From an uncultured Actinomycetota bacterium (GTDB taxonomy: Bacteria > Actinomycetota > Actinomycetes > Actinomycetales > Dermatophilaceae): a stretch of 64,000 nucleotides of DNA. Of this stretch, positions 1,024-51,575 are shown in pieces. Each line of letters begins with the position of its first letter. Within the stretch, counting starts at the first letter, position 1. The translations under genes were made by a program, and so were the position numbers. The notes under the pieces are model-generated. The model did not search any database, was not told where the DNA came from, and saw only the letters and a list, made by a program, of their open reading frames with translations. The DNA lies in NCBI GenBank assembly GCA_963800435.1, contig CAWDBE010000008.1, positions 397,839 to 461,838 on the forward strand, written 5' to 3'.

Positions 1024-2120
1024 TGCGCGTCGTCGCCGCCATGAGCGGGGGCGTCGACTCGGCCGTCGCCGCCGCTCGCATGGTCGACGCCGGCCACGAG
1101 GTCGTCGGCGTCCACCTCGCGCTGTCGCGCTCCGCCGCCACCCTGCGCGAGGGCGCCCGCGGCTGCTGCACCCTGGAGGACGCCGGCGACGCCCGCCGGG
1201 TCGCCGACCGGCTGGGGATCCCGTTCTACGTGTGGGACTTCGCCGACCGGTTCGCGCAGGACGTCGTCGAGGACTTCGTCGCCGAGTATGCCGCGGGGCG
1301 GACCCCGAACCCGTGCCTGCGGTGCAACGAGCGGATCAAGTTCGCCGCCCTCCTGGACCGGGCCGTGGCGCTGGGCTTCGACGCGGTGGCGACGGGACAC
1401 TATGCCCGGGTGCTCGAGACCCCGGGCGGCGCTCGCGAGCTGCACCGCGCGACCGATTCCGCCAAGGACCAGTCCTACGTGCTCGGCGTGCTCGAGGCCG
1501 CCCAGCTCGCCGGTGCCGTGTTCCCGCTCGGCGACTCGGTCAAGCCCGACATCCGGGCCGAGGCGGAGCGGCGGGGGCTCGGCGTGGCCAGGAAGCCGGA
1601 CAGCCACGACGTGTGCTTCATCCCCGACGGCGACACCCGGGGCTTCCTGCGGGCCCGGCTGGGTGAGCGACCCGGTGAGGTCGTCGACCCCGCCGGGACG
1701 GTTCTGGGGTCGCACACCGGCACCTACGGGTTCACCGTCGGCCAGCGGCGTAACCTCGGCCTCGACCGCAGCTCCCTCGACGGTGCGCCACGCTTCGTCC
1801 TCGGCGTCGACGCCCCCGGCCGCAGGGTCGTCGTCGGGACCGGGGATCTCCTGGGCGTCGACGAGCTCACCGGAGTGCACCTGCGCTGGTGTGGTCCGGC
1901 CCCGGACGGCGAGGTGAGCGTCGGCGCGCAGGTCCGCGCGCACGGCGAGGAGGTGCCGGCCACGGCATACCTCGCCTCGGACGACGAGGTCAAGGTGCGG
2001 CTGGAGCGGGCCGTACGCGGGGTCGCGCCGGGTCAAGCGGTCGTCCTCTACGACGGGACCCGGGTCGTCGGCTCGGCGACGATCGCCGCGACGGCACGGT
2101 CCGCACCGCTCCCCGGCTGA
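1023..2120 (+). CDS. mnmA: tRNA 2-thiouridine(34) synthase MnmA
   Basis: PP-loop [12 protein letters not shown] and the [10 protein letters not shown] motif. ATG 1023 overlaps the upstream stop. Pairing with a cysteine desulfurase is typical. Confidence 0.92.
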
Positions 2121-2208
2121 GGCGAGCCGACCGCCGTCGCCGCGGTGCGCCTGGCAAGGTGTACGTGGGCCATCGGGTCCGCGCACCGCATCGAGAGAGG
2201 CCACCGTC

Positions 2209-2970
2209 GTGAGCACCCCCCGCGTCCTGGCCGTCGTGCCCGCCCGCGGCGGGTCAAAGGGCCTGCCCGGCAAGAACGTCCGGCTCCTTGCCGGGCTGCC
2301 GCTCATCGCCCACTCGATCGCCGCGGCGGCCCTCATGCCGTCGGTCACCCGGTGCGTGGTGACCACCGACTCCGCCGAGATCGCCGCCGTCGCGCGGGCC
2401 CACGGGGGTGACGTGCCGTTCCTGCGGCCGGCCGAGCTCGCGGGGGACGACACCCCCATGGCGCCGGTGCTCCGGCACGCGCTGGCGAGCGTCGAGGAGC
2501 AGGAGGGCGCGGCATACGACCTGGTCGTCCTGCTCGACCCGACGAGTCCGGGGCGCGACCCGGACCGCGTCGAGGACGCGGTCGCGGGCCTGCTCGACGA
2601 CGGGTCCCTCGACGGAGTCGTCAGCGTGTCCGAGCCGACGTTCAACCCGCTGTGGGTCGGCGTGCGCGAGCGGCGCGAGGACCCGGGGGTGCTCGAACGC
2701 TACTTCGCGGAGGGCGAGGACATCACCCGCCGTCAGGACGCCCCGCGCTACCTACGGATCAACGGTGGTTTCTACGTGTGGCGGGCCGAGTTCGTCCGGC
2801 GTCTCGAGACCTCGTGGTTCGACGAGGGTCGGCACGCGATGGTCGAGGTTCCCGAGGTCCGGGCGTTCTCCATCGACGACGAGTACGAGCTCCGGCTGCT
2901 CCAGGCGGTCATCGACGCGGGCCTGGTGTACCTGCCGTGGCTTCGGACACCACCGGGGGAGGCGACATGA
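2209..2970 (+). CDS. acylneuraminate/CMP-sugar cytidylyltransferase family protein (NeuA/PtmB-like)
   Basis: The N-terminus VVPARGGSKGLPGKNV is the hallmark of the CMP-NeuAc/CMP-KDO synthetase-like fold. GTG start. 4-nt overlap with the next gene. Confidence 0.75.
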   Translation: MSTPRVLAVVPARGGSKGLPGKNVRLLAGLPLIAHSIAAAALMPSVTRCVVTTDSAEIAAVARAHGGDVPFLRPAELAGDDTPMAPVLRHALASVEEQEGAAYDLVVLLDPTSPGRDPDRVEDAVAGLLDDGSLDGVVSVSEPTFNPLWVGVRERREDPGVLERYFAEGEDITRRQDAPRYLRINGGFYVWRAEFVRRLETSWFDEGRHAMVEVPEVRAFSIDDEYELRLLQAVIDAGLVYLPWLRTPPGEAT

Positions 2971-3938
2971 GCGCCGCCCGGGTGCTCGTCCGCGGCGGGG
3001 GGTCCATCGGGACGCGGCAGGCCGAGGTGTTCGCCTCGCTCGGCTGCGATGTGGCGCTGTGGCCGGTCCGCCCTGGGCGCGAGGGCCCAGCCGGGGCACG
3101 GGTCGTGACCGACTCCGGTGGCGTGGCGGAGGCGGGCGCGGCCGACCTCGTCGTCGTCGCCACGGATACCGCCCGGCACGTGGCCGACGCCCTGGTGCTC
3201 CTCGAGGCCGGCGCGGCCAGGCTGCTCGTCGAGAAGCCCGTCGCACCGACGGCGGCCGACGTGGCGGTACTGGTGGGCCACCCGCGGGCCGGGGACGTCG
3301 TGGTCGCCGCTCCGCTGCGGGCGCACGATGCATTCGCCGTGGTCGCCGCTTGGGTGCACGACGGCCCACGGCCCAGCCACGCCGCGGCCTGGTGCCAGTC
3401 GTGGTTGCCCGACTGGCGTCCTGGGCGCGACTACCGCGAGAGCTACTCAGCGCGCCCCGACGAGGGAGGGGTTCTCAGGGATCTGGTCCACGAGCTCGAC
3501 TACCTCTGCCTGCTGCTCGGTGAGCCCTCTCGGGTCTCGGCGCGTCTGCGGAGAGACGGCCCACTCGACATCGACGCCGAGCAGGCGGCGACCCTGTTGT
3601 GGGACGCCGGTACCACGACGGTGCAGGCTCGGCTCGACTACGTCACCCGTCCCGCGCGGCGGGGCCTGCTGCTGAGTGGGGCCGACGGCAGCATCTCGTG
3701 GGACGTCCTCGACGCCACGGTCACCACGGCGTCCGCGGGCGGGCAGACGCACGTCCGCCGGTTCGCCGGCGACCTCGACCGCATGTCGGTGATGCGCCGC
3801 CAGGCGGCCGCTGCTCTCGCCGAGGAGCCGGGAGCCCCCGGCCGACCCGCCCCGGCGTCCCTCGCCGACGGCGTGCGGGTCGTCGCTCTCGCCGACGCCG
3901 CCCGCGCCTGCGCGGCGGCCGCACCACGACAGGAGTGA
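2967..3938 (+). CDS. Gfo/Idh/MocA-like oxidoreductase
   Basis: ATG 2967 overlaps the upstream stop. There is an N-terminal Rossmann-like segment, an EKP motif (LLVEKPVA) and a C-terminal alpha/beta domain. Confidence 0.6.
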   Translation: MSAARVLVRGGGSIGTRQAEVFASLGCDVALWPVRPGREGPAGARVVTDSGGVAEAGAADLVVVATDTARHVADALVLLEAGAARLLVEKPVAPTAADVAVLVGHPRAGDVVVAAPLRAHDAFAVVAAWVHDGPRPSHAAAWCQSWLPDWRPGRDYRESYSARPDEGGVLRDLVHELDYLCLLLGEPSRVSARLRRDGPLDIDAEQAATLLWDAGTTTVQARLDYVTRPARRGLLLSGADGSISWDVLDATVTTASAGGQTHVRRFAGDLDRMSVMRRQAAAALAEEPGAPGRPAPASLADGVRVVALADAARACAAAAPRQE

Positions 3939-3943
3939 GCAGG

Positions 3944-4726
3944 ATGGACACTTCGCTCGACGGCCGCACGGCCCTGGTCACCGGTGGCGCCGGCCCGTTG
4001 GGCAGTGTCCTCGGCGCCACGCTCGCCGAGGAGGGGGCCCGGGTGGTCGTCGTCGACCGTGACACCGACGCCGTCGACCGGTGCGTCTCCGGCCTTCCCG
4101 GCGCGGACCGCCGGCACGTCGGCGTGGTAGCCGACCTCATGTCGGGCGAGGGCCTGGACCGGGTCGAGGCCGTGGTCACCGGCCTCGGCGAGCTGGACGT
4201 GCTCGTCCACAACGCGGCCTTCACCGGGACCAGCGGCGTGCCGGGGTATGCCGTGCCCTTCGACGAGCAGAGCGACGAGGCCTTCGCGATGGCGACCTGG
4301 CTCAACCTCACGGTGCCCTTCTCGCTGACCCGCCGCATGCGCCCGCTGCTGGCGGCGTCGGGCCACGGCTCGGTCGTGTCGGTGTCCTCGATCTACGGTC
4401 TCGTCGGCCCCAACATGGGGCTGTACGCGGGCACGACGATGGGCAACCCCGCGGCGTATGCCGCGACCAAGGGTGGGCTCACGCAGCTCACGCGCTACCT
4501 CGCGACAGTGCTCGCTCCGGACATCCGGGTCAACGCCTTCGCCCCGGGCGGCATAGAGCGGGGCCAGGACGGGGCGTTCATCGAGCGCTACACCCGGCTT
4601 ACGCCGCTCGCCCGGATGGGCCGAGAGTCCGACCTCCGCGGGGTGCTGGCGTTCCTCGCGGGAGACGCGTCGGCCTACGTCACGGGCCAGGTCATCGCGG
4701 TCGACGGCGGGTGGACCGCCTGGTGA
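3944..4726 (+). CDS. SDR family oxidoreductase (PtmA-like)
   Basis: TGGAGPLGS dinucleotide motif and YAATKGG (YxxxK) catalytic motif. ATG 3944 lies 6 nt after the upstream stop. Confidence 0.8.
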   Translation: MDTSLDGRTALVTGGAGPLGSVLGATLAEEGARVVVVDRDTDAVDRCVSGLPGADRRHVGVVADLMSGEGLDRVEAVVTGLGELDVLVHNAAFTGTSGVPGYAVPFDEQSDEAFAMATWLNLTVPFSLTRRMRPLLAASGHGSVVSVSSIYGLVGPNMGLYAGTTMGNPAAYAATKGGLTQLTRYLATVLAPDIRVNAFAPGGIERGQDGAFIERYTRLTPLARMGRESDLRGVLAFLAGDASAYVTGQVIAVDGGWTAW

Positions 4727-4745: not shown

Positions 4746-6167
4746 TCACGGCTCCAGCACGCTCGCGAGGCACCGCGCCGCTGCGTCGGCCTGGGTCTCG
4801 GGCAGCCCGGCGTAGCAGAGGACCAGCCCCGAGAGGTCGCGGTCGACGCAGTACGCCGACAGCGGGCTCGCGGCCAGTCCCGCGCTCAGCAGCGCCCCGG
4901 TCACCACGAGGTCGTCGGTCTCCTCGGGCAGCCGCAGCACGACGTGCAGGCCCGCGTCGACCCCCACGAGCGCGAGGCCGGGCAGGTGCTGGGCCAGGGC
5001 GGAGACGAGGGCGGCGCGGCGGGCGGCATACGTGCGGGCGGCGCGGGCGTGGTGGGCCGCCATGGCGCCGGACCCGACGAACTCGGCCAGCGCGGCGCCG
5101 GTGGCCTCGTTGACGACGAGGCCGCGCAACTCGAGGGCGACCCGCAGGCTGTCCCGCAGGTGGGGCGGCGCGACGACCCAGGCGACCCGCAGGCTGGGGG
5201 CGAGGACCTTCGAGCTCGTGCCGATGTAGACGACGTGGTCGGCGGCGTCGGGCAGCGCGCGCAGCGCCGGCAGCGGCGACACGTCGTAGCGGAACTCGCC
5301 GTCGTAGTCGTCCTCGACGACCGTTGCGCCGCTCCGGCGGGCCCACGCCACGAGCTCGGCCCGGCGGCCGACCGGCATCCGCCCTCCGAGGGGGTACTGG
5401 TGGGACGGCGTGACATAGACCGCGGCGTCGTCGTCGCGCAGGGTGGCGGGGTCGAGCCCGTCGTCGTCGACCGGCACCGTCCGCACCCGGACCCCGGAGT
5501 CGGCGAAGGCCGTGACGGCCTCGACGTAGCCCGGGTCCTCGAGCACGGCGGACCGGCCGAGCAGCCCCAGGGCGTCCGGGAGGGCCCACAGCGACGCGGC
5601 GACCCCGGGCACGACGAGGAGGTCCTCGGGGGCCAGGGGTATGCCGCGTGAGCGCCGCAGGTGGTCGGCGAGCACGGCCCGCAGCCGGGTGTGCGGGGGC
5701 CCCGCGCCCGCGTCGTTGCCCGGCACGACTGTCGCTGCCGCCCGCCAGGCCCGCCGCCACGCGGCGGGGTCGATGAGCGTGGTGTCGGGGCGCCCCGGGC
5801 GCAGGTCCCACCGCGGGGGGGTCGGCGCGGCCGCGACCGCCTCGGGACCTCTCGTCCCCGCAGGCCGGACATGGCTGGCCGCCCCGGCCGCCGCGGCGAG
5901 GTCGGCCTCGGGCGCGACGACGGCTCCGGAGCCGGTCCGGGTGAGGATGTACCCCGCCGCGAGCAGCTCGTCGTACGCGGCGACGACCGGTCCACGGGAG
6001 ATGCCCAGCGAGGTCGCCAGGGCGCGCGTCGAGGGCAGCCGGTCGCCGGGACGCAGCCGCCCGTCCCGGAGCTCGGCGACGAGCGCGTCGGCGATCCGGT
6101 GGCGCAGCGGGGCCGCGCCGTCGAGGAGGCGCAGGACGAGGGTGGACACCGCAGCGGTTCGGGCCAT
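4746..6167 (-). CDS. MocR/PdxR-like GntR-family regulator with fused aminotransferase domain
   Basis: N-terminal wHTH LPSTRALATSLGISRGPVVAAYDEL, followed by a fold-type I aminotransferase domain with SSKVLAPSLRVAW (PLP lysine). Confidence 0.85.
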   Translation of the reverse strand: MARTAAVSTLVLRLLDGAAPLRHRIADALVAELRDGRLRPGDRLPSTRALATSLGISRGPVVAAYDELLAAGYILTRTGSGAVVAPEADLAAAAGAASHVRPAGTRGPEAVAAAPTPPRWDLRPGRPDTTLIDPAAWRRAWRAAATVVPGNDAGAGPPHTRLRAVLADHLRRSRGIPLAPEDLLVVPGVAASLWALPDALGLLGRSAVLEDPGYVEAVTAFADSGVRVRTVPVDDDGLDPATLRDDDAAVYVTPSHQYPLGGRMPVGRRAELVAWARRSGATVVEDDYDGEFRYDVSPLPALRALPDAADHVVYIGTSSKVLAPSLRVAWVVAPPHLRDSLRVALELRGLVVNEATGAALAEFVGSGAMAAHHARAARTYAARRAALVSALAQHLPGLALVGVDAGLHVVLRLPEETDDLVVTGALLSAGLAASPLSAYCVDRDLSGLVLCYAGLPETQADAAARCLASVLEP

Positions 6168-7200: not shown

Positions 7201-8261
7201 CGGCGGCGGGGGAGCCGGGCGGCGGAGCGCCCGGTGTCAGCGGGGCGGCATACGCTGCCGTGGTGGACAAGGCCGAGGTGACCCGGGCCAGCGGCGTCGG
7301 GGGCTGGCCCGGCACCGACGTCCGCGAGGCCGTCGTCACCGTGCGCGACCTGCTCGGCGCCGACCACGGACTGCCCTACCTGCCCGAGCTGCCGGCCCGC
7401 GGGCCGGGCGCCGACATGATCGGCCGGGCCGCCGGCCTGCTCGTCGAGATGCCCGTCGACCTCCAGCCGTCGGGGTGGCGGTTCGTCGACCGGCCCGGGC
7501 GCGATGCCGCGCGCACCGGCGCGTTCCTGCGCGAGGACCTCGACGTCGCCGCCGAGGCCTACGACGGCTACCGCGGAGAGCTCAAGGTGCAGGTCACCGG
7601 TCCGTGGACCCTCGCGGCCTCCGTCGAGCTCAACCGCGGCGAGCGGGCCATCGTCGACGAGGGCGCCGCCCGCGACCTCGTCGACTCCCTCGCCGACGGT
7701 GTCGCCGGGTATGTCGCCGACGTGCGCCGGCTGGTGCCGGGGGCCCGGGTCGTCCTCCAGGTCGACGAGCCGTCCCTGCCCGCGGTGCTGGGTGGGACCC
7801 TGCCGACCGCGTCGGGCTACGGACGGATCCGGGCCGTCGACCGCCAGGTCGTCGCTCGCGGTATCCAGACCGTCCTCGCCGGCCACGACGGACCCACCGT
7901 CGTCCACTGCTGCGCCGCCACCGCCCCCCTGCCGCTGCTGCGCGCGACCGGCGCCGGCGCGGTCTCGGTCGACCTCACCGATGCCACGCCCGCGCGGTGG
8001 GAGTCGGTGGCCGCCACCCTCGAGGAGGGTGTCGACCTCTATGCCGGGGTGCTCCCCAGCGATGGCACGGGCAGCCGGGACCGTGCGGTCCGCTCCGTGA
8101 TCGAGGGTCTCGACCGCGCCGGACTGGACGCCACGTGGCTCGCCCACGTCGTCATCACCCCCACCTGCGGGCTGGCCGGGCTCACAGCGTCGGGGGCCCA
8201 GGACGTTCACCGGATGGCGCTGGACGTGGCGCGCGAGCTGACCGAGAGGGCGGAGGGCTGA
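7197..8261 (+). CDS. cobalamin-independent methionine synthase (MetE C-terminal)-like family protein
   Basis: VGGWPGTDV near the N-terminus, VLQVDEPSL, HCCA and ITPTCGLAG motifs. The start is uncertain: GTG 7197 overlaps the upstream stop, and GTG 7278 is an alternative. Confidence 0.7.
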   Translation: MTAAGEPGGGAPGVSGAAYAAVVDKAEVTRASGVGGWPGTDVREAVVTVRDLLGADHGLPYLPELPARGPGADMIGRAAGLLVEMPVDLQPSGWRFVDRPGRDAARTGAFLREDLDVAAEAYDGYRGELKVQVTGPWTLAASVELNRGERAIVDEGAARDLVDSLADGVAGYVADVRRLVPGARVVLQVDEPSLPAVLGGTLPTASGYGRIRAVDRQVVARGIQTVLAGHDGPTVVHCCAATAPLPLLRATGAGAVSVDLTDATPARWESVAATLEEGVDLYAGVLPSDGTGSRDRAVRSVIEGLDRAGLDATWLAHVVITPTCGLAGLTASGAQDVHRMALDVARELTERAEG

Positions 8262-43367: not shown

Positions 43368-44588
43368 ATGAGCGCTCTGTCGAGACTGACATCCCGGGCC
43401 GTCGGCGCCGCGGGCCGCACCGGACGCGTGCTGATGTCCGCCCGCGAGATCCCCGATGCCATGGGCGGCCGGGTCGAGGGGCCGAGAGCCGACCGGGTCG
43501 CCGGGTCGCCGCGCTGGCGCGACGGGGCGTTCCACAACGCCCCGCCCATCGAGAGCGGGCCGTCCGGCGCGATGCGCGATGCACTGCAGCGCCTGGCATC
43601 CGGGTTGCCCGACCGCAAGCCGGCCGGTCCCGTGCCCGTGGTGGAGCCCGATCTCGATCTCGCAGTGGGCGACGGCGGGGCCAGCCGGAGCGGGTCCAGC
43701 GCGGACGGCATCCGGACCACGTGGTACGGCCACGCCACGGCACTGGTGGAGATCGACGGGGCGCGACTCCTCTTCGACCCGGTATGGAGCGAGCGGGTCT
43801 CGCCCTCGCAGGAGCTGGGGCCGCGGCGGCTGCACCCGGCGCCCGTCGCGCTCGAGCTCGTGCCCGCGCTCGACGCGGTCGTCGTCTCGCATGACCACTA
43901 CGACCACCTCGACATGATCACCGTCCGCGAGGTGGCGGCGACGCGGCCGGAGACCGTGTTCGTCGTGCCGCTCGGCGTGGGGGCGCACCTCGAGCACTGG
44001 GGGGTCCCGGTGGGCCGCATCGTCGAGCTCGACTGGGACGAGGAGCACGAGGTCGCCGAGGGCGTGCGGCTGGTCGCGGCGGCAGCGCGACACTTCTCGG
44101 GGCGCGGGTTCGGGCGGGACCGGACCCTGTGGGCGTCGTGGGTCGTCGCGGGGCCGCGGCACCGGGTGTACTACACCGGCGACTCGGGCTACTTCCCCGG
44201 TTACGGGGCGATCGGCGCCGACCACGGTCCGTTCGATCTCACCCTCGTGCAGATCGGGGCGTACGACCGGGCCTGGCCGGGCATCCACATGACCCCGGAG
44301 GAGGGGGTCGCGGCCCACCTCGACGTGTGCGGGGGGCTGCTCGTGCCGGTGCACTGGGGGACGTTCGTGCTGGCCATGCACCCGTGGGCCGAGCCCATCG
44401 AGCGGCTGCTCGCCGAGGCTGCCGCGACCGGGGCGCGGGTCGCGGTGCCCCGGCCGGGCCAGCTCGTCGACGTGGCCGCCCCACCCGAGCCCGACGGCTG
44501 GTGGGTCGAGCTCGCCCACGCGGCCAACGCCCACGCGGCGAGCGCGCGGCATACCCCCTCGCCCAGCCCCGACCCCGACCCCGCCTGA
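43368..44588 (+). CDS. MBL-fold metallo-hydrolase (NAPE-PLD-like architecture)
   Basis: WYGHAT...DPVWS...SHDHYDHLD metal motif, with a C-terminal HW/GTF region. Confidence 0.72.
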   Translation: MSALSRLTSRAVGAAGRTGRVLMSAREIPDAMGGRVEGPRADRVAGSPRWRDGAFHNAPPIESGPSGAMRDALQRLASGLPDRKPAGPVPVVEPDLDLAVGDGGASRSGSSADGIRTTWYGHATALVEIDGARLLFDPVWSERVSPSQELGPRRLHPAPVALELVPALDAVVVSHDHYDHLDMITVREVAATRPETVFVVPLGVGAHLEHWGVPVGRIVELDWDEEHEVAEGVRLVAAAARHFSGRGFGRDRTLWASWVVAGPRHRVYYTGDSGYFPGYGAIGADHGPFDLTLVQIGAYDRAWPGIHMTPEEGVAAHLDVCGGLLVPVHWGTFVLAMHPWAEPIERLLAEAAATGARVAVPRPGQLVDVAAPPEPDGWWVELAHAANAHAASARHTPSPSPDPDPA

Positions 44589-44859: not shown

Positions 44860-46022
44860 ATGGACTCCTCGCTGCGCGCACTCGCGCGGGCCCAGCGCGG
44901 GGTGTTCTGCGCCGCCCAGGCCGCCGGGGCCCGGCATCAGCGTCGGTCGCCTTCAGGCGCTGGTGTGCTCGGGGGAGCTGTGGCGACCGCGGCAGGGCGC
45001 GTTCGTCCTCGGGGAGCTCGCGGTAGCAGCCCGACCCCAGGAGCCGTACGCCCTGGCAGTCCGGGCCGGTGTGCTGCACCCGGCCGACCGCCGCGGCCTC
45101 GCACCACGCCGGGCTCGCCATCCACGGCCTCCCGATCGCCGGGGTGGACCTCGCGCGGATCGACCTCGTCGCGGACGTCGCCCACGCGAGCACCCGAAGC
45201 GGTGTCCGCACCCGCCCGATGCCGCCGGGCGAGCGGATCCTGCCGGTCGAGGGGGTGCGCGTCGCCTCGGTGGCGACGTGCCTCGTCCAGACCACCGCGG
45301 AGTCGGGCCTGCTGGCGGGCCTGGTCAGTGCGGATGCCGCCCTCCACGACGGCCTCGTCGACCGCGCCGAGCTCGCGGCCGCCGCGGTTCGGCTCGCGCC
45401 TCGCAGGGGTGCCGGCAGCGTGCGGACGGCGCTGTGGCTGGTCGACCCTCGGGCCGAGTCGCCCGGAGAGACCCGCACCCGGTTGATGCTGGTGTCCGCG
45501 GGCCTGGCGTTCGTGTCCCAGGCTCAGATCGTCGACGGGACCGGGCGCTTCCTCGCTCGGGTGGACTTCCTCGTCGCCGGGCGGGTGGTCGTGGAGTTCG
45601 ACGGCGCGGTGACGTATGCCGGTGCCGACGGGCGCGAAGGGCTGGTCCGGGAGAAGCGGCGCGAGGACGCGCTGCGCGCGCTCGACTATGAGGTCGTCCG
45701 GCTCTCCTGGGCCGACCTCGACCGTCCCGAGCTCGTCCTGGCCCGGATCCACGAGGCACTCGCCCGTGCCGGCGCGCGGGTGAGCGGCACTCGCACGTCT
45801 GCCTGGTGGGCGCCGGCACGGTCCGGCCGGGACGGGGCCTGCGCCTTGCCCAGGAGCCGCAGTGGCTCGACCCGCTGGTTCTTCCTCACCTCACCGGATA
45901 TTCAGCGACTCGACGAAGGAACGGCGAGCCGAGCTGCGACGAGGCGAGGGCGGGCGAGCCCACGGGGCGGGACGGCATACCGGGTCGGGTGGCGGCAACC
46001 ACTATGTGGGACCAGGTGGTGA
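44860..46022 (+). pseudogene. AbiEi-N/DUF559 (Vsr-like endonuclease fold) family gene with two +1 frameshifts
   Basis: The family-typical sequence is spread over three frames. These are MDSSLRALARAQRGVFCAAQAAGA (from 44860), GISVGRLQALVCSGELWRPRQGAFV (after about 44932), and AAASHHAGLAIHGLP...DPRAESPGETRTRL...RVDFLVAGRVVVEFDG...LRALDYEVVRLSWADL (after about 45083). Confidence 0.65.
45864..45931. repeat. 67-nt element, copy 2 (inverted relative to copy 1)
   Basis: Its reverse complement aligns with 44637-44703. The shared core is TCGCTGAAYATCCGGYGAG...GAAGAACCAGCG. Confidence 0.7.
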
Positions 46023-46156: not shown

Positions 46157-46465
46157 CCGGGAACGTCGCCCACCGCGAGACGGCCCGCCGGAGCAAGGGT
46201 TCCCGGCCCACACCCCAGGGCCAGGAGCGGCAGCGCGGCCGAGACGCACGCCGGAGACGGTGGGCCGCCTGGGCGGCTCGCGGGCATCCGCCCGTGGGAC
46301 GCCCAGGCGCCACCGGCCCGACACGACCGACAGAACCCGACGGGACCGGCCCGACCAGCTGAACCGGACCGACCGGCACGGGACGCACGACCAGCACGAC
46401 CGAGCCTGACCCCACTCGCCGGACCCACCCGGCATACCGCGCTCCACAGATCGAGGCGAGACACG

Positions 46466-48058
46466 ATGACCGACCTGCACGTCTACGACACCACGCTGCG
46501 CGACGGTGCCCAGCAAGAGGGGCTCAACCTCTCCGTGACGGACAAGCTGGCCATTGCGAGCCACCTCGACGAGCTCGGGGTGGGCTACATCGAGGGCGGC
46601 TGGCCCGGGGCGAACCCCAAGGACACCGAGTTCTTCGCCCGCGCCCAGCGCGAGCTGACCCTCGCAAACGCCACCCTCGCGGCGTTCGGTGCGACGCGGC
46701 GCGCGGGGGGCACCGCGGCGACGGACCCGCTCGTCCGGGCGCTGCTCGACTCCGGGGCCTCGGTCGTCACCCTCGTCGCCAAGTCGCACCCAGGGCACGT
46801 CGAACGGGCCCTGCGCACCACCCTCGAGGAGAACCTCGAGATGATCCGCGACACCGTCGCCTTCCTCACCGGGGAGGGACGCAGGGTGTTCCTCGACGCC
46901 GAGCACTTCTTCGACGGGTATGCCGCGAACCGCGACTATGCCGTCGAGACCGTCCGTGCCGCGATGGAGGCGGGCGCCGAGGTGGGGGTCCTCTGCGACA
47001 CCAACGGCGGCATGCTGCCCGGCCAGGTCGCCGATGTCGTCCACGACGTCGTCACGGCGACCGGCGGCAAGATCGGCATCCACTGCCACAACGACACCGG
47101 CTGCGCCGTCGCGAACTCGATGGCCGCGGTCGACGCGGGCGCCACGCACGTCCAGGGGACGATCAACGGCTACGGCGAGCGCACCGGAAACGCCGACCTG
47201 CTCACGGTCGTCGCCAACCTCCAGATCAAGCGGGGGCTGCCCCTCATCGACCCGCACCGGCTCGCCGAGTCGACCCGGATCGCGCACGCCATCAGCGAGG
47301 TCACCAACGTCCCGCCCTACAGCCGCCAGCCCTACGTCGGTGCGAGCGCCTTCGCCCACAAGGCCGGCCTGCACGCCAGCGCCATCAAGGTCGACCCCGA
47401 CCTCTACCAGCACACCGACCCCAAGCACGTGGGCAACGACATGCGGATGCTCGTCTCCGACATGGCCGGCCGGGCCTCGATCGAGCTGAAGAGCCGCGAG
47501 CTCGGCCTCGACCTCGACGGCACGAACGAGGCCGACGCCGCGACCCTGAAGAAGGTGCTCAAGAAGGTCAAGGATCTCGAGCTGCGGGGCTACACCTTCG
47601 ACGCCGCCGATGCCTCCTTCGAGCTCCTCCTGCGCCGAGAGCTCGACGGCTCGCTGCCGCCCTACTTCGACGTCGAGTCCTGGCGGGTCATCACCGACCG
47701 CGGCGGCGCCGGCGACGCCCTGTCGGAGGCGACGGTCAAGATCGTCGCATCCGGACGGCGCTACGTCAGGACCGGCGAGGGCAACGGCCCGGTCAACGCC
47801 CTCGACCACGCGCTGCGCGACGCCCTCTCGCACGCCTACCCCGAGATCGCCCACCTCGAGCTCATCGACTACCGGGTCCGCATCCTCGACGCGGCCCATG
47901 GCACCGACGCCGTCACCCGGGTGCTCATCGAGACCTCCGACGGCGCGACCTCGTGGCAGACCATCGGGGTCGCCGCCAACATCGTCGAGGCGTCCTGGGA
48001 GGCCCTCGTCGACGGCGTCACCTACGGCCTCATCCGGGCCGGGGTCACGCCCCGCTGA
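46466..48058 (+). CDS. citramalate synthase / 2-isopropylmalate synthase family (short CimA-like form)
   Basis: HVYDTTLRDGAQQEGL, HCHND and a C-terminal LeuA-dimer regulatory domain, about 530 aa. CimA versus LeuA cannot be decided from sequence alone. Confidence 0.88.
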   Translation: MTDLHVYDTTLRDGAQQEGLNLSVTDKLAIASHLDELGVGYIEGGWPGANPKDTEFFARAQRELTLANATLAAFGATRRAGGTAATDPLVRALLDSGASVVTLVAKSHPGHVERALRTTLEENLEMIRDTVAFLTGEGRRVFLDAEHFFDGYAANRDYAVETVRAAMEAGAEVGVLCDTNGGMLPGQVADVVHDVVTATGGKIGIHCHNDTGCAVANSMAAVDAGATHVQGTINGYGERTGNADLLTVVANLQIKRGLPLIDPHRLAESTRIAHAISEVTNVPPYSRQPYVGASAFAHKAGLHASAIKVDPDLYQHTDPKHVGNDMRMLVSDMAGRASIELKSRELGLDLDGTNEADAATLKKVLKKVKDLELRGYTFDAADASFELLLRRELDGSLPPYFDVESWRVITDRGGAGDALSEATVKIVASGRRYVRTGEGNGPVNALDHALRDALSHAYPEIAHLELIDYRVRILDAAHGTDAVTRVLIETSDGATSWQTIGVAANIVEASWEALVDGVTYGLIRAGVTPR

Positions 48059-48140: not shown

Positions 48141-49271
48141 ATGACGGCCGGCCTCATCCCCTTCCCGCTGTGGGGCCAGCGCGGGTGGTGCTCGGTCGAG
48201 GTCCTCGGGGAGAGGTTCCACGAGGAGTCGCTGCGCGCGCTGTTCGCCGAGGTGCCCCGTGGCCGTCGCGACGAGGTGGACGGCACGGCATACCTCATGC
48301 CCGAGCCGAATAGCGCGCGTGACGCCGTCCGCGTCGTGTGCGACGGCCTGCACGTGGGCTACCTGCCGGCGGCGCTCGCCGTGGCCTACCGGCCCGTCGT
48401 CGCCCGCCTCGAGGCCGCGGGACACGTTGCCACGGTGGCGTTCCGTGCCTGGGGTGAGGAGTACGAGCCGTGGGGCGCGGAGCGCGACGGAGGCGGCCCG
48501 GGTGCCAGGTTCTCCGGTGGGGTCTACCTCGACCTCGCCGAGCCGCATCTCGTCCTGCCGCTCAACGACCGGCCACCCGGGGCCGTGCGCGAGCTGCCGG
48601 TGGGGACCGCGATCCAGGTGTGGGGCGAGGAGCACTACCTCGCGCATCTTCGGGCCTATACCCGAACGGAGGGGGAGGCATGGGTGTACGCGACCTTGCA
48701 CCCGGTGCTCGAGGAGCTCGCGCGCTCGACGCGCAGCCTGGTCGAGGTGCGGGTCGACGGTGAGCCGGTGGGCCGGCTCACCCCACGGATGAGCGGCGCG
48801 GTGCTGCCCGCCGTCGAGCACGTCGAGCGCCGTGGCGCCACGGCGGTGGCACGGGCGCTGGTGAAAGGCACCGCGATCAGGGCCGAGGTGTTGCTCCACG
48901 TCCAGCGGGCTCACGAGATCGCCCCTGACTGGCTCGAGGGCCGAACCGATGGGCCTCGATCCCGCGTGGCACCGCCCAGCGACCCGGCGGACGACCATGC
49001 GGACGACCCGGCGGACGACCAGGATCCAGTGGCCACCGGCCCGGGGGGGAGCGAGCCCCCGGCCGCGAAACCGTCGACGCCACCGGCGCTGCAGCCCGCT
49101 CGGCCGGAGGCGCGGCATCCGGGCGTGCCGACCCGGCCGATGCGGCTGGTGTTCAACCTTCCCCCCGGCTGGCCACCCCCGCCCGACGGCTGGGAGCCCG
49201 AGCCCGGGTGGAGGCCTCCAGGGGACTGGCCGGCCGCGCCCGAGGGCTGGGAGTACTGGGTCGGCCGCTGA
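48141..49271 (+). CDS. hypothetical protein with two HIRAN-like modules and a Pro/Trp-rich tail
   Basis: EPNSARDAVRVVCDGLHVGYLP resembles the HIRAN core. The C-terminus is PPGWPPPPDGWEPEPGWRPPGDWPAAPEGWEYW. Third-position GC is high throughout. Confidence 0.55.
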   Translation: MTAGLIPFPLWGQRGWCSVEVLGERFHEESLRALFAEVPRGRRDEVDGTAYLMPEPNSARDAVRVVCDGLHVGYLPAALAVAYRPVVARLEAAGHVATVAFRAWGEEYEPWGAERDGGGPGARFSGGVYLDLAEPHLVLPLNDRPPGAVRELPVGTAIQVWGEEHYLAHLRAYTRTEGEAWVYATLHPVLEELARSTRSLVEVRVDGEPVGRLTPRMSGAVLPAVEHVERRGATAVARALVKGTAIRAEVLLHVQRAHEIAPDWLEGRTDGPRSRVAPPSDPADDHADDPADDQDPVATGPGGSEPPAAKPSTPPALQPARPEARHPGVPTRPMRLVFNLPPGWPPPPDGWEPEPGWRPPGDWPAAPEGWEYWVGR

Positions 49272-49436
49272 CGGCGCGAGCACTCTCGACGGACTCCACG
49301 GCCCGTTTCAGGTTGCGTCCAGGGTGGGTTCGTAACGTCGATGACCGTCGGTCGACGGGCCGCAGACGCACCCAGAGCTCACCTCTGTCGCCACCCGCCG
49401 CCACGTCCGAGAGTCGACGAACGAGGAGGGTGTCCG

Positions 49437-51575
49437 GTGACCGGAGCTCGCCGAGCGCTCCGGTCCCAGGCCAGGGTGTGGCGGGCGCTGGCGGGACTGG
49501 GCGCGCTGGCCGTGACGGCCGGGATCCTCGGCTCCGGGCTGGCCCTGCCGCTCGTGGCGGTGGCCGCCTCCAGCGTCGACGCCGGCACCACCGCGTTCGC
49601 GTCGCTGCCCGCCGACATCCCGACGGTCTCGCTGCCCCAGACCACGGTCGTGCTCGACGCCAAGGGCCACGCGATCGCCCATCTCTACGACGAGAACCGC
49701 ACCCAGGTCCCACTGTCGGCGATGTCCGTGCTCGTGCAGCACGCGATCGTCGCCGTGGAGGACTCGCGGTTCTTCCAGCACGGCCCCGTCGATCCCCGAG
49801 GCCTGGCGCGAGCCCTGGTCGCCGACGCCACGGGCCACCCCATCCAGGGCGCTTCCACGCTGACCCAGCAGTACGCCAAGAACCTCCTCCTCGAACAGGA
49901 CGTCCTGGCGGGTGACACGGCCGGCGCCAGGGCCGATGTCGCCCGCACGGTGTCCCGCAAGGTTCGCGAGCTGCGCCTGGCGGTCAGCCTTGAGCAGCAC
50001 TACACCAAGCAGCAGATCCTCGAGCGCTACCTCAACATCGTCTACTTCGGCCAAGGCGCCTACGGGGTCCAGGCCGCCGCCGAGCGGTTCTTCGGGGTTC
50101 CTGCGGCCAGGCTCGACGTGGCCCAAGCCGCGACGCTCGCGGGCCTGGTCCAGGACCCCGCGGCATACGACCCGGTCCAGCATCCCAGCGCGGCCCGGCG
50201 GCGCCGCGACGAGGTGCTCACGGACATGCGCGCGCAGGGGATGATCACCACCGCGCAGTACTCGAGGGCCGTCGCGTCCAAGGTCACGGTCACCGGCAAG
50301 GCAGCGCCCGAAGGGTGCGCGGCATCGGGGACCACCGGCTTCTTCTGCGACTATGTCGTCCAGTCCCTCCTGCGCGACCCGGCGTATGCCGCTCTCGGCG
50401 CCACCGCGGGCCAGCGGCAGCAGGCGCTGCTGAACGGCGGGCTGGTCATCCACACCACGCTCGACCCCTCGACCCAGTCGGCCGCCGTCCATGCCGTCGA
50501 CGCCAAGGTGCCCGCCAAGGACAGCAGCAGGCTCGGAGCCGCGGCGGTGACGGTCGAGCCGGGGACCGGGGCGGTCGTCGCGATGGCGGAGAACCGCACC
50601 TTCTCCCCGACGGCCGGTCGGGGCCGGACCTCGGTGAACTACACGACCGACGCCAGCCTCGGTGGGGCGAGCGGCTTCCAGACCGGGTCCTCGTTCAAGC
50701 CGTTCACGCTCGCGACGTGGCTGGAGCAGGGCCGCAACCTCAGTGACGTCGTCGACGCCACGAAGCGCGGCTTCCCGTTCTCGTCGTTCACCTCCTGCGG
50801 GCAGCCCCTCTCGGGCACCCAGCCCTACCTCCCCGGCAACTCCGAGGGCACCGAGACCGGGCCGATGTCGGTCCTGGACGCCACGGTCAACTCGGTCAAC
50901 GTCGCCTACGTCGATATGGAGACCCAGCTCGACCTGTGCAGCGTGGCCAAGACCGCCGAGGCGCTCGGCGTGCACACGGCCACCCCGCAGCAGGTGTGCA
51001 CAGCGGGCGGCAAGGCCTCGACCGACCTGCCGACCTGTCTGCCCTCGCTCACGCTCGGGGTCGAGGACATCGCGCCTCTGACGATGGCCGCGGCCTATGC
51101 GGGCTTCGCGTCGGGCGGGACCTACTGTGCGCCGATGCCGGTCGGCTCCATCACCAGCCGCGCCTCGCCGGGCGCGAAGGAGACCGCTGTCCTCACGGCG
51201 CACCCGAGCTGCCGCCAGGCGCTCTCCGGTGCGGTGGCCTCCGGCGTCAACACCGCGTTGGAGCAGGTGCTCACGCGGGGTACGGCCGCCGGCAGTGGAC
51301 CGCTGTTCCCGTGGCAGTCGGCCGGCAAGACCGGTACGACCGACGGGCCGTACGACTCGTGGTTCGTGGGCTACACGGCGCAGCGCAGCACCGCGGTCTG
51401 GGTGGGCGACCCCGGGCGCACCGTCCACGGCAAGGCCACCCGGCTGCGCCTGACCAACGTCATGGTGGGCGGGACCTACTACCCGGTCGTCTATGGCGCG
51501 AGCATCGCCGCGCCGATCTGGAAGCAGCTCATGACGAGCGCCATGGCCGGCCTGCCCGCCGCGCCGCTGCCCTGA
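49437..51575 (+). CDS. class A penicillin-binding protein (transglycosylase/transpeptidase)
   Basis: GT51 motifs EDSRFFQHGPVD and GASTLTQQ. Transpeptidase motifs SSFKP (SxxK) and KTGTT. GTG 49437 lies 7 nt after GAGGAGGG, and a TM anchor follows. Confidence 0.92.
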   Translation: MTGARRALRSQARVWRALAGLGALAVTAGILGSGLALPLVAVAASSVDAGTTAFASLPADIPTVSLPQTTVVLDAKGHAIAHLYDENRTQVPLSAMSVLVQHAIVAVEDSRFFQHGPVDPRGLARALVADATGHPIQGASTLTQQYAKNLLLEQDVLAGDTAGARADVARTVSRKVRELRLAVSLEQHYTKQQILERYLNIVYFGQGAYGVQAAAERFFGVPAARLDVAQAATLAGLVQDPAAYDPVQHPSAARRRRDEVLTDMRAQGMITTAQYSRAVASKVTVTGKAAPEGCAASGTTGFFCDYVVQSLLRDPAYAALGATAGQRQQALLNGGLVIHTTLDPSTQSAAVHAVDAKVPAKDSSRLGAAAVTVEPGTGAVVAMAENRTFSPTAGRGRTSVNYTTDASLGGASGFQTGSSFKPFTLATWLEQGRNLSDVVDATKRGFPFSSFTSCGQPLSGTQPYLPGNSEGTETGPMSVLDATVNSVNVAYVDMETQLDLCSVAKTAEALGVHTATPQQVCTAGGKASTDLPTCLPSLTLGVEDIAPLTMAAAYAGFASGGTYCAPMPVGSITSRASPGAKETAVLTAHPSCRQALSGAVASGVNTALEQVLTRGTAAGSGPLFPWQSAGKTGTTDGPYDSWFVGYTAQRSTAVWVGDPGRTVHGKATRLRLTNVMVGGTYYPVVYGASIAAPIWKQLMTSAMAGLPAAPLP

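Follow-up and report, generated by a model that had tools for sequence, protein, structure and literature searches.

The 8-bp word CGGCATAC (GTATGCCG on the minus strand) is hyper-abundant throughout a large group of Dermatophilaceae, where it is imposed at the DNA level, occupies preferred sites, is conserved yet turns over, and gives way to dialect words in sister lineages. Our favored, though tentative, interpretation is that it is a possible lineage-specific signal for recognition of self-DNA, akin to the DUS/USS uptake sequences, that would have spread by biased uptake and recombination.

Results

Abundance and codon context

The 64-kb stretch of DNA analyzed here (the window) contains 39 exact copies between positions 1286 and 50391, 19 on the plus strand and 20 on the minus strand (Table 1). 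The count, the orientation neutrality and every position given in the initial annotation, from the first copy at 1286 to the last at 50384-50391, were correct. In comparison, 100 dinucleotide-preserving shuffles of the window gave a mean of 1.07 copies (maximum 6), and Markov models of order 0, 1, 2 and 3 predicted 2.1, 1.1, 1.5 and 2.5 copies, respectively. Within genes, 27 copies were observed as opposed to 2.3 +/- 1.4 (maximum 9) under synonymous-codon shuffling, which preserves the protein and codon usage, and 0.9 under codon-order shuffling. Shuffles and Markov models together put the expectation for the window at 1-2.5 copies, as opposed to the 39 observed. The limits of the word were sharp (GGCATAC, n = 40; CGGCATA, n = 43 in the window) and its flanks weak, with R at -1 and C or G at +1 in 35/39 copies each. 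Its density of ~1 per kb is 15 to 140 times that expected by chance or found in related genomes. The host is a soil or sludge actinobacterium of the family Dermatophilaceae.

Although all three reading frames are used, the earlier description of the motif as frame-independent is an overstatement and wrong as it was worded, since two of the six possible combinations of frame and orientation account for 22 of the 27 coding copies, namely xxG-TAT-GCC-Gxx (Tyr-Ala; 13 copies) and xCG-GCA-TAC (Ala-Tyr; 9 copies). Among pooled coding copies (n = 218), 79% were in two of the six classes. The codons used by the motif (TAT, GCA and ATA) are rare. TAT was chosen for Tyr-Ala in 16/25 cases when G comes next and in 1/15 elsewhere, and GCA for Ala-Tyr in 8/16 cases when CG precedes and in 2/32 elsewhere. 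Genes of the first 50.5 kb contain only 5 ATA codons, 3 of which lie within CGGCATAC, in the Gly-Ile-Pro contexts at 5639, 22797 and 38770 that had been pointed out previously. The encoded tripeptides YAA, YAV and TAY were enriched 2.2-, 2.8- and 3.9-fold, respectively. The force behind CGGCATAC works at the DNA level, against codon bias.

Placement, spacing and hairpins

As the initial annotation had it, copies are enriched between genes: 12/39 lie outside genes in the window, where 10.1% of the DNA is non-coding (p = 3e-4), and 38% of pooled copies lie within the 17% of DNA that is non-coding (p = 4e-21). The enrichment outside genes is 2-3 fold and arises mainly directly after stop codons, with copies clustering 19-34 nt past the stop; density was 2.5 per kb in spacers between tandem or convergent genes vs. 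0.95 per kb in divergent ones. Copies upstream of start codons, which had been noted earlier, do occur but are less typical than those just past stops. Dyads were arranged as GTATGCCG..CGGCATAC in 14 cases and in the reverse order in 2; they are intergenic and form long hairpins, and inverted pairs of the motif fold into terminator-like structures. The pair noted after serA (32442/32481) yielded a 13-bp-based hairpin with a dG of -44.6 kcal/mol (z = -5.1). Spacing was more regular than random (CV 0.82 vs. 1.01 +/- 0.05), and 0/2000 simulations were as even. The reported absence from accessory DNA was borne out, in that the last 13.6 kb, with its IS630-type transposase ORFs and PIN toxin, lack the motif (P = 2e-5 at core density).

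Table 1. Copies of CGGCATAC and features of the motif-free tail in the window.
Feature	Position	Strand	Context
mnmA-like gene 1020-2120	1286-1293	-	G-TAT-GCC-G (Glu-Tyr-Ala-Ala)
mnmA-like gene 1020-2120	1963-1970	+	CG-GCA-TAC (Thr-Ala-Tyr)
Cytidylyltransferase gene 2209-2970	2510-2517	+	Ala-Ala-Tyr
SDR gene 3935-4726	4246-4253	-	Gly-Tyr(TAT)-Ala-Val
SDR gene 3935-4726	4456-4463	-	Ala-Tyr(TAT)-Ala-Ala
GntR/aminotransferase gene 4746-6149 (- strand)	5024-5031	+	Thr-Tyr(TAT)-Ala-Ala
GntR/aminotransferase gene 4746-6149	5639-5646	-	Arg-Gly-Ile(ATA)-Pro
Intergenic	7246-7253	+	7 nt upstream of start called at 7260
AMP-binding enzyme gene 10363-11859 (- strand)	11097-11104	+	Met-Tyr(TAT)-Ala-Ala
ligA 12546-14720	12913-12920	+	Ala-Ala(GCA)-Tyr-His
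Intergenic	14898-14905	-	ligA and 14929-16644 converge on spacer
Intergenic	19208-19215	-	gatC stop + 9 nt; 72 nt upstream of gatA
gatA	20708-20715	-	Leu-Tyr(TAT)-Ala-Val
gatB	20890-20897	+	Ala-Ala(GCA)-Tyr-Asp
2-Hydroxyacid dehydrogenase gene 22477-23409	22643-22650	-	Gly-Met-Pro frame; orthologous site in L001 without motif
2-Hydroxyacid dehydrogenase gene 22477-23409	22797-22804	+	Arg-Gly-Ile(ATA)-Pro; kept in L001
Gene 24837-26408	26006-26013	-	Ala-Tyr-Ala-Ala
ilvB	28119-28126	-	Gly-Tyr(TAT)-Ala-Val; kept in L001, L005, L006
Intergenic	29311-29318	+	70 nt upstream of ilvC; kept in L003, L004
Intergenic	30447-30454	-	ilvC stop + 28 nt
Intergenic	30775-30782	+	31 nt upstream of serA; L001 has one-off CGGCATGC
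Inverted pair GTATGCCG(32442)...CGGCATAC(32481)	32442-32488		hairpin base, serA stop + 43 nt
Intergenic	32686-32693	-	spacer serA / 31-aa ORF; kept in L001
Intergenic	33011-33018	-	53 nt upstream of leuB
leuB	33735-33742	+	Thr(ACG)-Ala(GCA)-Tyr; kept in L001, L003
28-nt spacer, aminotransferase (end 35436) / HAD hydrolase (start 35465)	35458-35465	-	kept in L001
GntR/FCD regulator gene 38201-38926	38464-38471	-	Thr-Tyr(TAT)-Ala-Ala; kept in L001
GntR/FCD regulator gene 38201-38926	38770-38777	+	Arg-Gly-Ile(ATA)-Pro; kept in L001
Glutamine-synthetase-family gene 38923-40317	40122-40129	-	Ala-Tyr(TAT)-Ala-Ala; kept in L001
Aldehyde dehydrogenase gene	41485-41492	+	Thr-Ala(GCA)-Tyr-Gly
MBL-fold gene 43428-44588, close to 3' end	44547-44554	+	rare frame Arg-His-Thr-Pro
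Gene 45069-46022	45614-45621	-	Thr-Tyr(TAT)-Ala-Gly
Gene 45069-46022	45973-45980	+	Thr-Ala(GCA)-Tyr-Arg
Intergenic	46430-46437	+	29 nt upstream of leuA/cimA-like gene 46466-48058
leuA/cimA-like gene 46466-48058	46918-46925	-	Gly-Tyr(TAT)-Ala-Ala
Gene 48141-49271	48286-48293	+	Thr-Ala(GCA)-Tyr-Leu
Class A PBP gene 49476-51575	50161-50168	+	Ala-Ala(GCA)-Tyr-Asp
Class A PBP gene 49476-51575 (last copy)	50384-50391	-	Ala-Tyr(TAT)-Ala-Ala
Motif-free tail	50392-64000		0 copies
Accessory genes	from 51.8 kb on		within tail
IS630-type transposase ORFs	54740-55177, 55396-55800, 55891-56922, 63257-64000		within tail
PIN toxin	57369-57755		within tail
ABC/FtsX	58367-62307		within tail

Distribution and conservation in relatives

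The abundance of CGGCATAC is clade-wide. Pooling of relatives, which comprised Knoellia, Pedococcus, Intrasporangium and a large number of metagenome contigs, gave 351 copies in ~380 kb (379 kb), a ~140-fold higher density than the 3 copies in 452 kb of GC-matched relatives. Contigs with serA identities from 100% down to ~71% were hyper-abundant in the motif, and its carriers include Knoellia subterranea as well as MAGs with the labels Pedococcus and Intrasporangium. Sister lineages had no word or the variants CGCATAC (L002, L218, L219 and L262; 31 in 45.8 kb vs. 2 in 80.9 kb) or CGGCATCC (L004, L206 and L207) in its place, and in the CGGCATCC lineages the rare-codon frame G-GAT-GCC-G occurred 10 times in 28.7 kb vs. 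once in 80.9 kb. Such variants resemble DUS dialects, and the occurrence of two dialects side by side in L262 has a counterpart in Simonsiella (PMC3630211).

Retention of orthologous copies was about double that of 8-mers overall, and of 8-mers matched for frame, across all divergence bins (0.85/0.37, 0.59/0.28, 0.39/0.21 and 0.27/0.14), and all eight positions were conserved above background. The window and L001 had 9/13 copies in common vs. 0.23 expected (p = 5e-4). The motif is maintained, with turnover. Between the motif and its counterparts at orthologous sites, synonymous, double and amino-acid changes were all seen. At the ilvB site (28119), relatives without the motif have GTACGCCG, GTACGCGG or CTACGCCG, in which Tyr is TAC, a synonymous difference at that codon; at the leuB site (33735), ACC-GCC-TAC or ACC-GCG-TAC is two synonymous changes away. 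Site 22797 reads CTCCGTCC or CAGCATCC in relatives without the motif, and the copy at 26006 is tied to an amino-acid difference because relatives have Phe (GTTCGCCG, CTTCGTCG).

Discussion

Neisseria and Haemophilus recognize their own DNA through DNA uptake signals. Common properties of USS and DUS (PMC2817400) include equal orientations, even spacing, under-representation in coding DNA, intergenic dyad pairs, a reading-frame preference, enriched tripeptides and absence from accessory DNA, and CGGCATAC has every one of them. The likeness to uptake sequences proposed in the initial annotation holds and is strengthened by clade-specific dialects, even spacing, terminator placement, frame bias, tripeptides, conservation and absence from accessory DNA. 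The initial interpretation is partly supported, as a putative functional analogy. In the proposed process, the DNA-binding part of the import machinery, in actinobacteria presumably a Tad/Flp-type pilus with ComEA/ComEC, would prefer double-stranded fragments bearing CGGCATAC. Recombination would then swap the imported fragments for their homologues, so that new copies would be transmitted more than motif-less alleles (a proposed molecular drive), and a common preference would also promote exchange with kin. The word could climb to ~1 per kb wherever sequence tolerates it, in non-coding DNA, chiefly in terminator hairpins behind genes, and, despite rare codons, at coding positions where Tyr-Ala, Ala-Tyr or Gly-Ile fit, while recently acquired DNA would lack it. 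A shift in receptor specificity, with the genome following, would produce dialects, and upon loss of the system the motif would be erased by strong GC3 pressure.

Several observations count against uptake. The word is only 8 bp long with almost no flanking information, whereas USS/DUS cores span 9-12 bp with further context, and no competence, pilus, methylase or nuclease genes are encoded within the 64-kb window. We found no uptake-signal-like sequence described for any Gram-positive bacterium and, for Dermatophilaceae, no paper dealing with competence or with the specificity of uptake. The distribution is also patchy and would require several losses or a mobile determinant: Knoellia had 0.65 per kb, but at comparable serA distances the count was 0 in Phycicoccus endophyticus, P. 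duodecadis, Nostocoides sp. Soil756 and strain NEB 688. The phage data point both ways. L173, a siphovirus structural module whose composition resembles that of the clade, has CGGCATAC at ~1/3 to 1/2 of host density, which we count in favor of the proposal, yet uptake drive does not predict copies in phage structural genes except in a temperate phage of long residence.

The main rival is a HIP1-like chromosomal motif. HIP1 has been proposed to be selected as a binding site on the chromosome, and selection of this kind is compatible with every hallmark of CGGCATAC listed here. Deamination of 5mC (TACGCC to TATGCC), an alternative raised initially, is disfavored as sole cause, because the entire precursor pool in related genomes is ~6x rarer than CGGCATAC, orthologous states are mostly >=2 changes away, some with amino-acid changes, and conservation extends to all eight positions. 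Neither one mutational hot spot nor Chi/KOPS nor REP/MITE elements fit the motif; among the motif kinds compared, only USS/DUS and HIP1 match its class of excess.

Abundance of the word and its excess over chance

The initial annotation had counted 39 exact copies of the 8-mer by eye, and a pattern search returned every one of them, 19 as CGGCATAC and 20 as its other-strand reading GTATGCCG, between positions 1286 and 50391 of the window. This amounts to 0.79 copies per kb in DNA of 72.3% G+C. The claimed excess over chance was also borne out: dinucleotide-preserving shuffles contained a mean of 1.07 copies (maximum 6), and Markov models of order 0-3 predicted 1.1-2.5 copies for the window. 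CGGCATAC was in 15- to 40-fold excess over the nulls, and in ~140-fold excess over related genomes. The edges of the word were sharp, the sub-words GGCATAC and CGGCATA occurring 40 and 43 times in the window, respectively, and the window flanks contributed just a purine at -1 and C/G at +1. When motif-rich loci of relatives were pooled, position -2 was C in 61% of copies, -1 was a purine in 78% and +9 was C/G in 90%; positions farther out carried zero information.

The copies within genes were compared with codon-aware nulls. Against 27 coding copies observed in the window, shuffling of synonymous codons within genes, which preserves both proteins and codon usage, gave 2.3 +/- 1.4, and shuffling of codon order gave 0.9. 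Codon choice in the window genes also depended on context: Tyr-Ala was written TAT-GCC or TAT-GCG in 16 of 25 cases when the next base was G as opposed to 1 of 15 when it was not, and Ala-Tyr used GCA in 8 of 16 cases after CG and in 2 of 32 otherwise. The two shuffles and this context-dependent codon choice rule out a codon artefact, in agreement with the initial annotation, which had also noted that the word forces rare ATA codons; three of the five ATA codons in the analysed window genes fall inside it.

Gene setting and the motif-free tail

An exact match to its SerA placed the window within the 1.5-Mb ENA metagenome contig ERZ25039495:contig_22211; identical entries for its IlvC and GatB were not found, probably owing to differing start calls. 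Window genes were called from third-position G+C and named via Pfam (see table). The first 51 kb consisted of ordinary actinobacterial core DNA, with 36 of 41 genes on the + strand, and from 51.8 kb onward the gene content changed to three or four IS630-type ORFs, a PIN toxin and ABC/FtsX genes. The word had been described as absent from accessory DNA, and this IS630/PIN/ABC tail contained 0 copies in 13.6 kb (p = 2e-5, for one region only). No competence, methylase or nuclease gene was found among the window genes with Pfam, and Rfam and tRNA scans of the window gave no match.

Genes and mobile elements of the window, with window positions
Feature	Position	Remarks
mnmA, ligA, gatCAB, ilvBNC, serA, leuB, leuA/cimA-like, class A PBP	first 51 kb	core genes; Pfam
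Split IS630-type (DDE_3) transposase, HTH	54740-55177	
Split IS630-type (DDE_3) transposase, DDE	55396-55800	
Intact IS630-type (DDE_3) transposase ORF	55891-56922	
PIN toxin	57369-57755	
ABC/FtsX pair	58367-62307	77% G+C
Further IS630-type (DDE_3) transposase ORF	63257-64000	cut by window end

Distribution among relatives

Loci around ilvC were surveyed with one genome per species. The word was abundant in the MAG designated L001, whose IlvC is 94% identical to that of the window (13 copies in 21 kb), in the Dermatophilaceae MAG L003 (21 copies in 21 kb), in an Intrasporangium MAG (L005; 8 copies in 6.7 kb) and in a Pedococcus MAG (L006; 15 copies in 21 kb). The remaining Actinobacteria of this survey, other Dermatophilaceae MAGs included, had chance counts of 0-2 per locus. 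Among 80 serA-centred metagenome contigs, most of those with 71-89% SerA identity carried 0.3-1.7 copies per kb, and those at 70% or below were at chance level with 0 or 1 copy each. Pooling 22 non-redundant motif-rich loci gave 351 copies in ~380 kb (0.9 per kb) versus 3 in 452 kb of G+C-matched relatives, a ~140-fold difference. Of cultured organisms, Knoellia subterranea had 14 copies and Pedococcus sp. KACC 23699 had 5, each in 21.6 kb, and 0 copies were found in the 21.6 kb checked for each of Phycicoccus endophyticus, P. duodecadis, Nostocoides sp. Soil756 and strain NEB 688. Since the motif occurs in many lineages of the family and is absent from some genera, the trait is old and widespread in the family, yet patchy.

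One of these loci (L287; CP053707) is labelled 'Arthrobacter sp. NEB 688'. Its SerA is 81% identical to that of the window and the synteny around ilvBNC-serA-leuB is of the Dermatophilaceae type; judging from these sequences, the genus name is probably wrong.

A viral contig, L173 (IMGVR_UViG_3300027673_000039, 12525-27290), holds a siphovirus structural module of 70% G+C with genes for a tape measure, major tail, neck and head protease. Over 14.8 kb it contains CGGCATAC six times, with three copies within the tape-measure gene; this density is biased upward as the contig was found via an inverted pair. That scan for inverted pairs in viral sequences gave at least 120 matches, by our estimate roughly the number expected by chance in a collection of this size, and only L173 looked clade-like. 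Tetrasphaera phage TJE1, whose host is not necessarily motif-rich, had 2 copies in 49 kb, which is the chance expectation.

Intergenic placement, hairpins and spacing

As the initial annotation had proposed, the word was enriched between genes: 12 of the 39 window copies lie in the 10.1% of the DNA that is non-coding (p = 3e-4). In the pooled loci, 38% of copies fell in the 17% of DNA not assigned to genes (p = 4e-21). Across the pooled loci and the window, the coding share of copies was 62-69%, inside ordinary housekeeping genes. Density in spacers where a gene ends (tandem or convergent) was 2.5 per kb versus 0.95 per kb in divergent spacers, the latter being near the coding density, and the pooled copies clustered 19-34 nt past stop codons. 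Close copies had a preferred arrangement. In the 21 pooled pairs less than 80 bp apart, 14 read GTATGCCG...CGGCATAC, 2 were inverted the opposite way and 5 were direct. Pairs of the favoured kind give a long hairpin with the word at its base and an inner stem that varies by locus. The window example downstream of serA, already recognized as a hairpin in the initial annotation, has a predicted dG of -44.6 kcal/mol (z = -5.1). A perfect or one-off inverted partner was found for about one quarter of intergenic copies. These dyad pairs resemble the terminators of uptake sequences, and they are putative terminators here as well.

Spacing along the pooled loci was more even than random, with a coefficient of variation of gap lengths of 0.82 versus 1.01 +/- 0.05 for random placement; 0 of 2000 simulations were equally even. 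The longest gap between copies was 4.3 kb where 6.5 kb was expected.

Reading frames and encoded peptides

The word had been called frame-independent, which proved too strong a statement: 22 of the 27 coding copies in the window, and 79% of coding copies in the pooled set, fall in two of the six frame/orientation classes. Pooled coding copies encoded Tyr-Ala (109), Ala-Tyr (63), Gly-Ile (24), Met-Pro (15) and other peptides (7), and the corresponding tripeptides were enriched relative to control proteins (YAA 2.2-fold, YAV 2.8-fold, TAY 3.9-fold). With respect to transcription, 91 pooled coding copies were in the same and 127 in the opposite direction. The use of both orientations, together with the empty Rfam scan, excludes a role at the RNA level.

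Conservation and turnover of sites

The window and L001 share 83.6% nucleotide identity, and 37% of their aligned 8-mers are identical. By comparison, the two loci have in common 9 of the window's 12 copies and 9 of L001's 10, i.e., 9 of the 13 sites in the union, where a fraction of 0.23 was expected (p = 5e-4). Across successive divergence bins, the motif was retained about twice as often as all or frame-matched 8-mers (0.85/0.37, 0.59/0.28, 0.39/0.21 and 0.27/0.14), although the locus pairs are not independent. All eight positions of the word were conserved above background. Turnover was nonetheless high, ~60% of sites being unshared at 78% identity.

Motif copies and their orthologues differed most often at position 5, where the A/T distinguishes GTATGCCG from GTACGCCG and CGGCCTAC. 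An orthologous GTACGCCG is one synonymous change away (e.g., site 28119), CCGCCTAC is two synonymous changes away (e.g., site 33735), and GTTCGCCG has Phe in place of the Tyr encoded by the motif (e.g., site 26006). Most orthologous states of non-shared sites were two or more changes off (CCGCCTAC, CGGAGTAG, CGGCGAAG, GTTCGCCG), and some were more distant still.

In the pooled motif-rich loci, two one-off words were more frequent than in controls, CGGCCTAC about two times (34 vs. 17) and CGACATAC about six times (19 vs. 2.5), with other one-offs near baseline. The two raised words could be decaying copies of the motif or could reflect weaker recognition of variants.

Dialects of the word in sister lineages

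In the loci L002, L218, L219 and L262, CGGCATAC was absent or nearly so and CGCATAC stood in its place, with 31 copies (13 of them intergenic) in 45.8 kb versus 2 in 80.9 kb of near relatives. L262 bears both words, 7 copies of CGCATAC and 4 of CGGCATAC in 9.9 kb. A third word, CGGCATCC, occurred at about 1 per kb in L004, L206 and L207. In L004 it was initially considered a mere codon effect, as Microbacteriaceae are equally dense in it with ordinary codons, a view overturned by frame analysis: the rare-codon frame G-GAT-GCC-G was found 10 times in 28.7 kb versus a single time in the 80.9 kb of control loci, and L004 and L206 also had a raised number of intergenic copies. Because the rare-codon frame and the intergenic copies are specifically raised in these two loci, we accept CGGCATCC as a dialect. 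The three words have the core GCAT in common. They are linked to lineage, as judged by ilvC/serA identity as a proxy for phylogeny. Eight DUS dialects, one- and two-base variants that track lineages and sometimes co-occur, have been described in Neisseriaceae (PMC3630211).

The copy at 29311 lies 70 nt upstream of ilvC, and orthologous sites are kept in L003 and in L004, which belongs to the CGGCATCC-dialect lineage. This copy may belong to a conserved leader or promoter element of ilvC.

The palindrome GTAC was depleted three- to five-fold, to 0.4-0.7 per kb, in six of the motif-rich loci (L003, L203, L204, L213, L239 and L256) and was not depleted, at 2-3 per kb, in the window, L001, L006 and L260. 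The pattern suggests that the target of a GTAC-specific restriction system is avoided in these loci, and it is separate from the 8-mer.

Comparison with known genomic words

Taken as a whole, the results indicate that the complete 8-mer is advantageous at the DNA level in motif-rich lineages, sufficiently so to override codon bias and shift amino acids, and that this advantage has gone in sister genera, where the word is fully erased. Our preferred, though tentative, reading is that CGGCATAC is a signal of the DUS/USS kind that would spread via biased uptake and recombination, with uptake, receptor and competence proposed by analogy. It is favored because, of the motif types considered, uptake sequences alone unite the features seen here: the word is non-palindromic, unskewed, present about once per kb and evenly spaced; it forms terminator pairs, prefers certain frames, enriches its peptides, is missing from new DNA and has dialects. 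CGGCATAC agrees with DUS and USS in every sequence-level property that could be tested. The organisms concerned are soil and activated-sludge Actinobacteria that include Knoellia, Pedococcus and Intrasporangium, the motif-rich status of the latter two having been shown in MAGs only. This Dermatophilaceae group might practise sequence-selective transformation with CGGCATAC and its dialects as an independent signal, a proposal we advance with reserve; it would be a third origin of such a system, the first in a Gram-positive phylum, and would involve a novel receptor. Our literature search yielded nothing on competence in Dermatophilaceae/Intrasporangiaceae, nor did it find a description of CGGCATAC or its sub-words, or of an uptake-like motif from any actinobacterium.

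The DUS of Neisseriaceae (GCCGTCTGAA core, 12-mer AT-DUS) are recognized by the minor pilin ComP. The present word is like DUS in being short and non-palindromic, in occurring about once per kb in both orientations with a family-level distribution, in having one- and two-base dialects that track lineages, two of them in some genomes, in forming dyad pairs that give terminator hairpins, and in its reading-frame bias. In contrast to DUS, it has an unrelated sequence, an 8-bp core rather than 10-12 bp and hardly any flank; it is more patchy among genera, belongs to a high-GC Gram-positive host that has no outer membrane, and is known here from sequence whereas DUS are known from uptake. We know of no ComP-type pilin in a high-GC Gram-positive host. 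Recently acquired DNA generally lacks uptake sequences (PMC2817400), as does the tail of the window. The USS of Pasteurellaceae (AAGTGCGGT / ACAAGCGGT) resemble the word in being mostly coding with few preferred frames, evenly spaced, enriched about two-fold or more in the encoded tripeptides, and present as two subtypes in sister lineages (PMC2817400). They differ from it in sequence and in their AT-rich flanking segments, which CGGCATAC does not have, and USS frame use correlates with preferred codons (PMC2817400), whereas the preferred frames of CGGCATAC use rare codons. CGGCATAC contains neither GCCGTCTGAA (CTG core) nor the AAGTGCGGT core and occurs in another phylum. It is an analogue and not a member of the DUS or USS family, and if it is an uptake signal its origin is therefore independent.

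Alternative explanations

The main rival holds that an abundant chromosomal protein binds the word, in which case natural selection would keep a copy every 1-2 kb with no uptake involved. Candidates include a protein that structures the nucleoid or controls topology (gyrase or topoisomerase, cf. REP/BIME at gene ends) and an unoriented 'self' tag for recombination or a nuclease. The precedent is HIP1, the highly iterated palindrome GCGATCGC of cyanobacteria, which illustrates that a hyper-abundant and conserved 8-mer need not be an uptake signal. HIP1 is likewise an 8-mer in 15- to 300-fold excess inside and between genes, is conserved between genomes above neighboring sequence, and possibly has a chromosomal function. 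It differs in being a palindrome that two orphan methyltransferases recognize, whereas CGGCATAC is non-palindromic and has no known methyltransferase link. A chromosomal site would suit the even spacing with few long gaps, the conservation of all eight positions, the enrichment at the 3' ends of genes, where supercoiling and hairpins play a role, and the occurrence of the word in a phage module, and drift in the specificity of any DNA-binding protein would yield dialects. It accounts for conservation, spacing and phage copies equally well. We nevertheless regard it as rather unlikely, as no protein of this kind is known or turned up in the window, selection at each of thousands of sites would need to be strong enough to override codon bias and change amino acids, turnover is high, and whole genera at the same phylogenetic distance are without the word, which would be odd for a core function. 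The enterobacterial REP/BIME elements are themselves like the word in having inverted, hairpin-forming copies just downstream of genes. However, REPs are ~35-bp imperfect palindromes that, as far as is known, are intergenic only, whereas the unit here is 8 bp long, has no conserved stem interior and occurs mostly as single copies within genes.

Ranking third is biased repair or methylation drive, in the manner of very-short-patch repair, by which a sequence-specific methyltransferase, nuclease or glycosylase would resolve mismatches in near-cognate sites toward a functionless CGGCATAC. That orthologues differ most often at position 5 speaks for it, GTACGCCG is depleted in the pooled clade (16 vs. 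60 expected from controls), and patchiness and dialects would suit a mobile specificity determinant of the restriction-modification type. This explanation is improbable on several grounds. The word is non-palindromic with all 8 bp specified, which is unusual among methyltransferase sites, and Vsr-type repair runs opposite to the change required here (C:G to T:A). GTACGCCG is not depleted in the window (10 seen vs. 4-6 expected), and its pooled depletion tracks the general avoidance of GTAC in some lineages only. In addition, multi-step differences and flanking synonymous conservation would require conversion at all eight positions, even spacing is not predicted, and the window is without a methylase or nuclease gene.

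A context-specific mutational hot spot acting alone, e.g., 5mC deamination of GTACGCCG to GTATGCCG as a mutational sink, had been listed as an alternative in the initial annotation. The one-step synonymous precursor does differ by C-to-T at a CpG, site 28119 shows exactly that change relative to motif-less relatives, and the precursor is depleted in the pooled data. That depletion, about four-fold, does not prove deamination, however; it reflects GTAC avoidance in some lineages and is absent from the window. By our flux argument, a sink fed by a single precursor cannot much exceed the precursor pool, yet there are 351 copies versus ~60 precursors in control genomes. Most orthologous states are at least two changes away, the other seven positions are conserved above background, and decay products at the third positions of the flanks, which are free to vary, show little increase (CTATGCCG 13 vs. 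9; GTATGCGG 7 vs. 3). Neither the even spacing nor the strong preference of inverted pairs for one arrangement fits. Deamination as the sole cause is largely refuted by the pool size, the multi-step states and the conservation at all positions, and we consider a hot spot highly improbable.

An oriented chromosome-processing signal, whether a Chi-like hot spot or a KOPS/SRS-like translocase guide, is less credible still. Such words are non-palindromic, lineage-specific and 5-8 bp long, read by a DNA-tracking enzyme, and CGGCATAC has a suitable length (8 bp) and is clade-specific. They are, however, skewed to one strand per replichore, while the strands here are balanced, 19:20, in a region with 36 of 41 genes in one orientation (p = 0.001 against a 75% skew), and close copies are often inverted pairs. 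As far as is known, Chi and KOPS words are only modestly over-represented, and the 15- to 140-fold excess of CGGCATAC is far above that of any of them. The least plausible source is a single family of mobile elements (REP, MITE or IS ends), suggested by the hairpin-forming inverted pairs at gene ends but refuted because conserved flanks are absent, the flanks being nearly uninformative past +/-2 nt; moreover, the sequence between paired copies varies by locus, most copies sit in housekeeping genes in fixed frames, and the IS copies of the window are without the word.

Implications of a possible uptake signal

To our knowledge, sequence-specific DNA uptake occurs in just two families of Gram-negative Proteobacteria, and its purpose and origin are still debated. 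If CGGCATAC is indeed an uptake signal, self-recognition words evolve repeatedly, and natural transformation would be widespread, though so far unnoticed, among Actinobacteria that abound in soil and wastewater. The DNA receptor would have to be of a new kind because the outer membrane and ComP are absent, and adding the word to DNA could render these poorly tractable organisms transformable. Should the role instead be chromosomal like that of HIP1, the word would provide a second, non-palindromic system for a thirty-year-old question. CGGCATAC can also serve as a sharp marker of native versus acquired DNA and for binning metagenomes of the family. The hypothesis is directly testable because cultures exist of close relatives that are rich in the motif (Knoellia subterranea) and of others that are without it (Phycicoccus). 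Complete genomes are on record as well (e.g., CP157483, CP060712 and CP053707).

A conserved small ORF between serA and leuB

A 31-codon ORF (MNPEMMTSEADGARRALQESMDLRDQGHSED) is present between serA and leuB at window positions 32862-32957 (+). It belongs to no Pfam family. The ORF is conserved: its counterparts in Phycicoccus, Nostocoides and strain NEB 688, which are likewise annotated as genes, are 65-74% identical.
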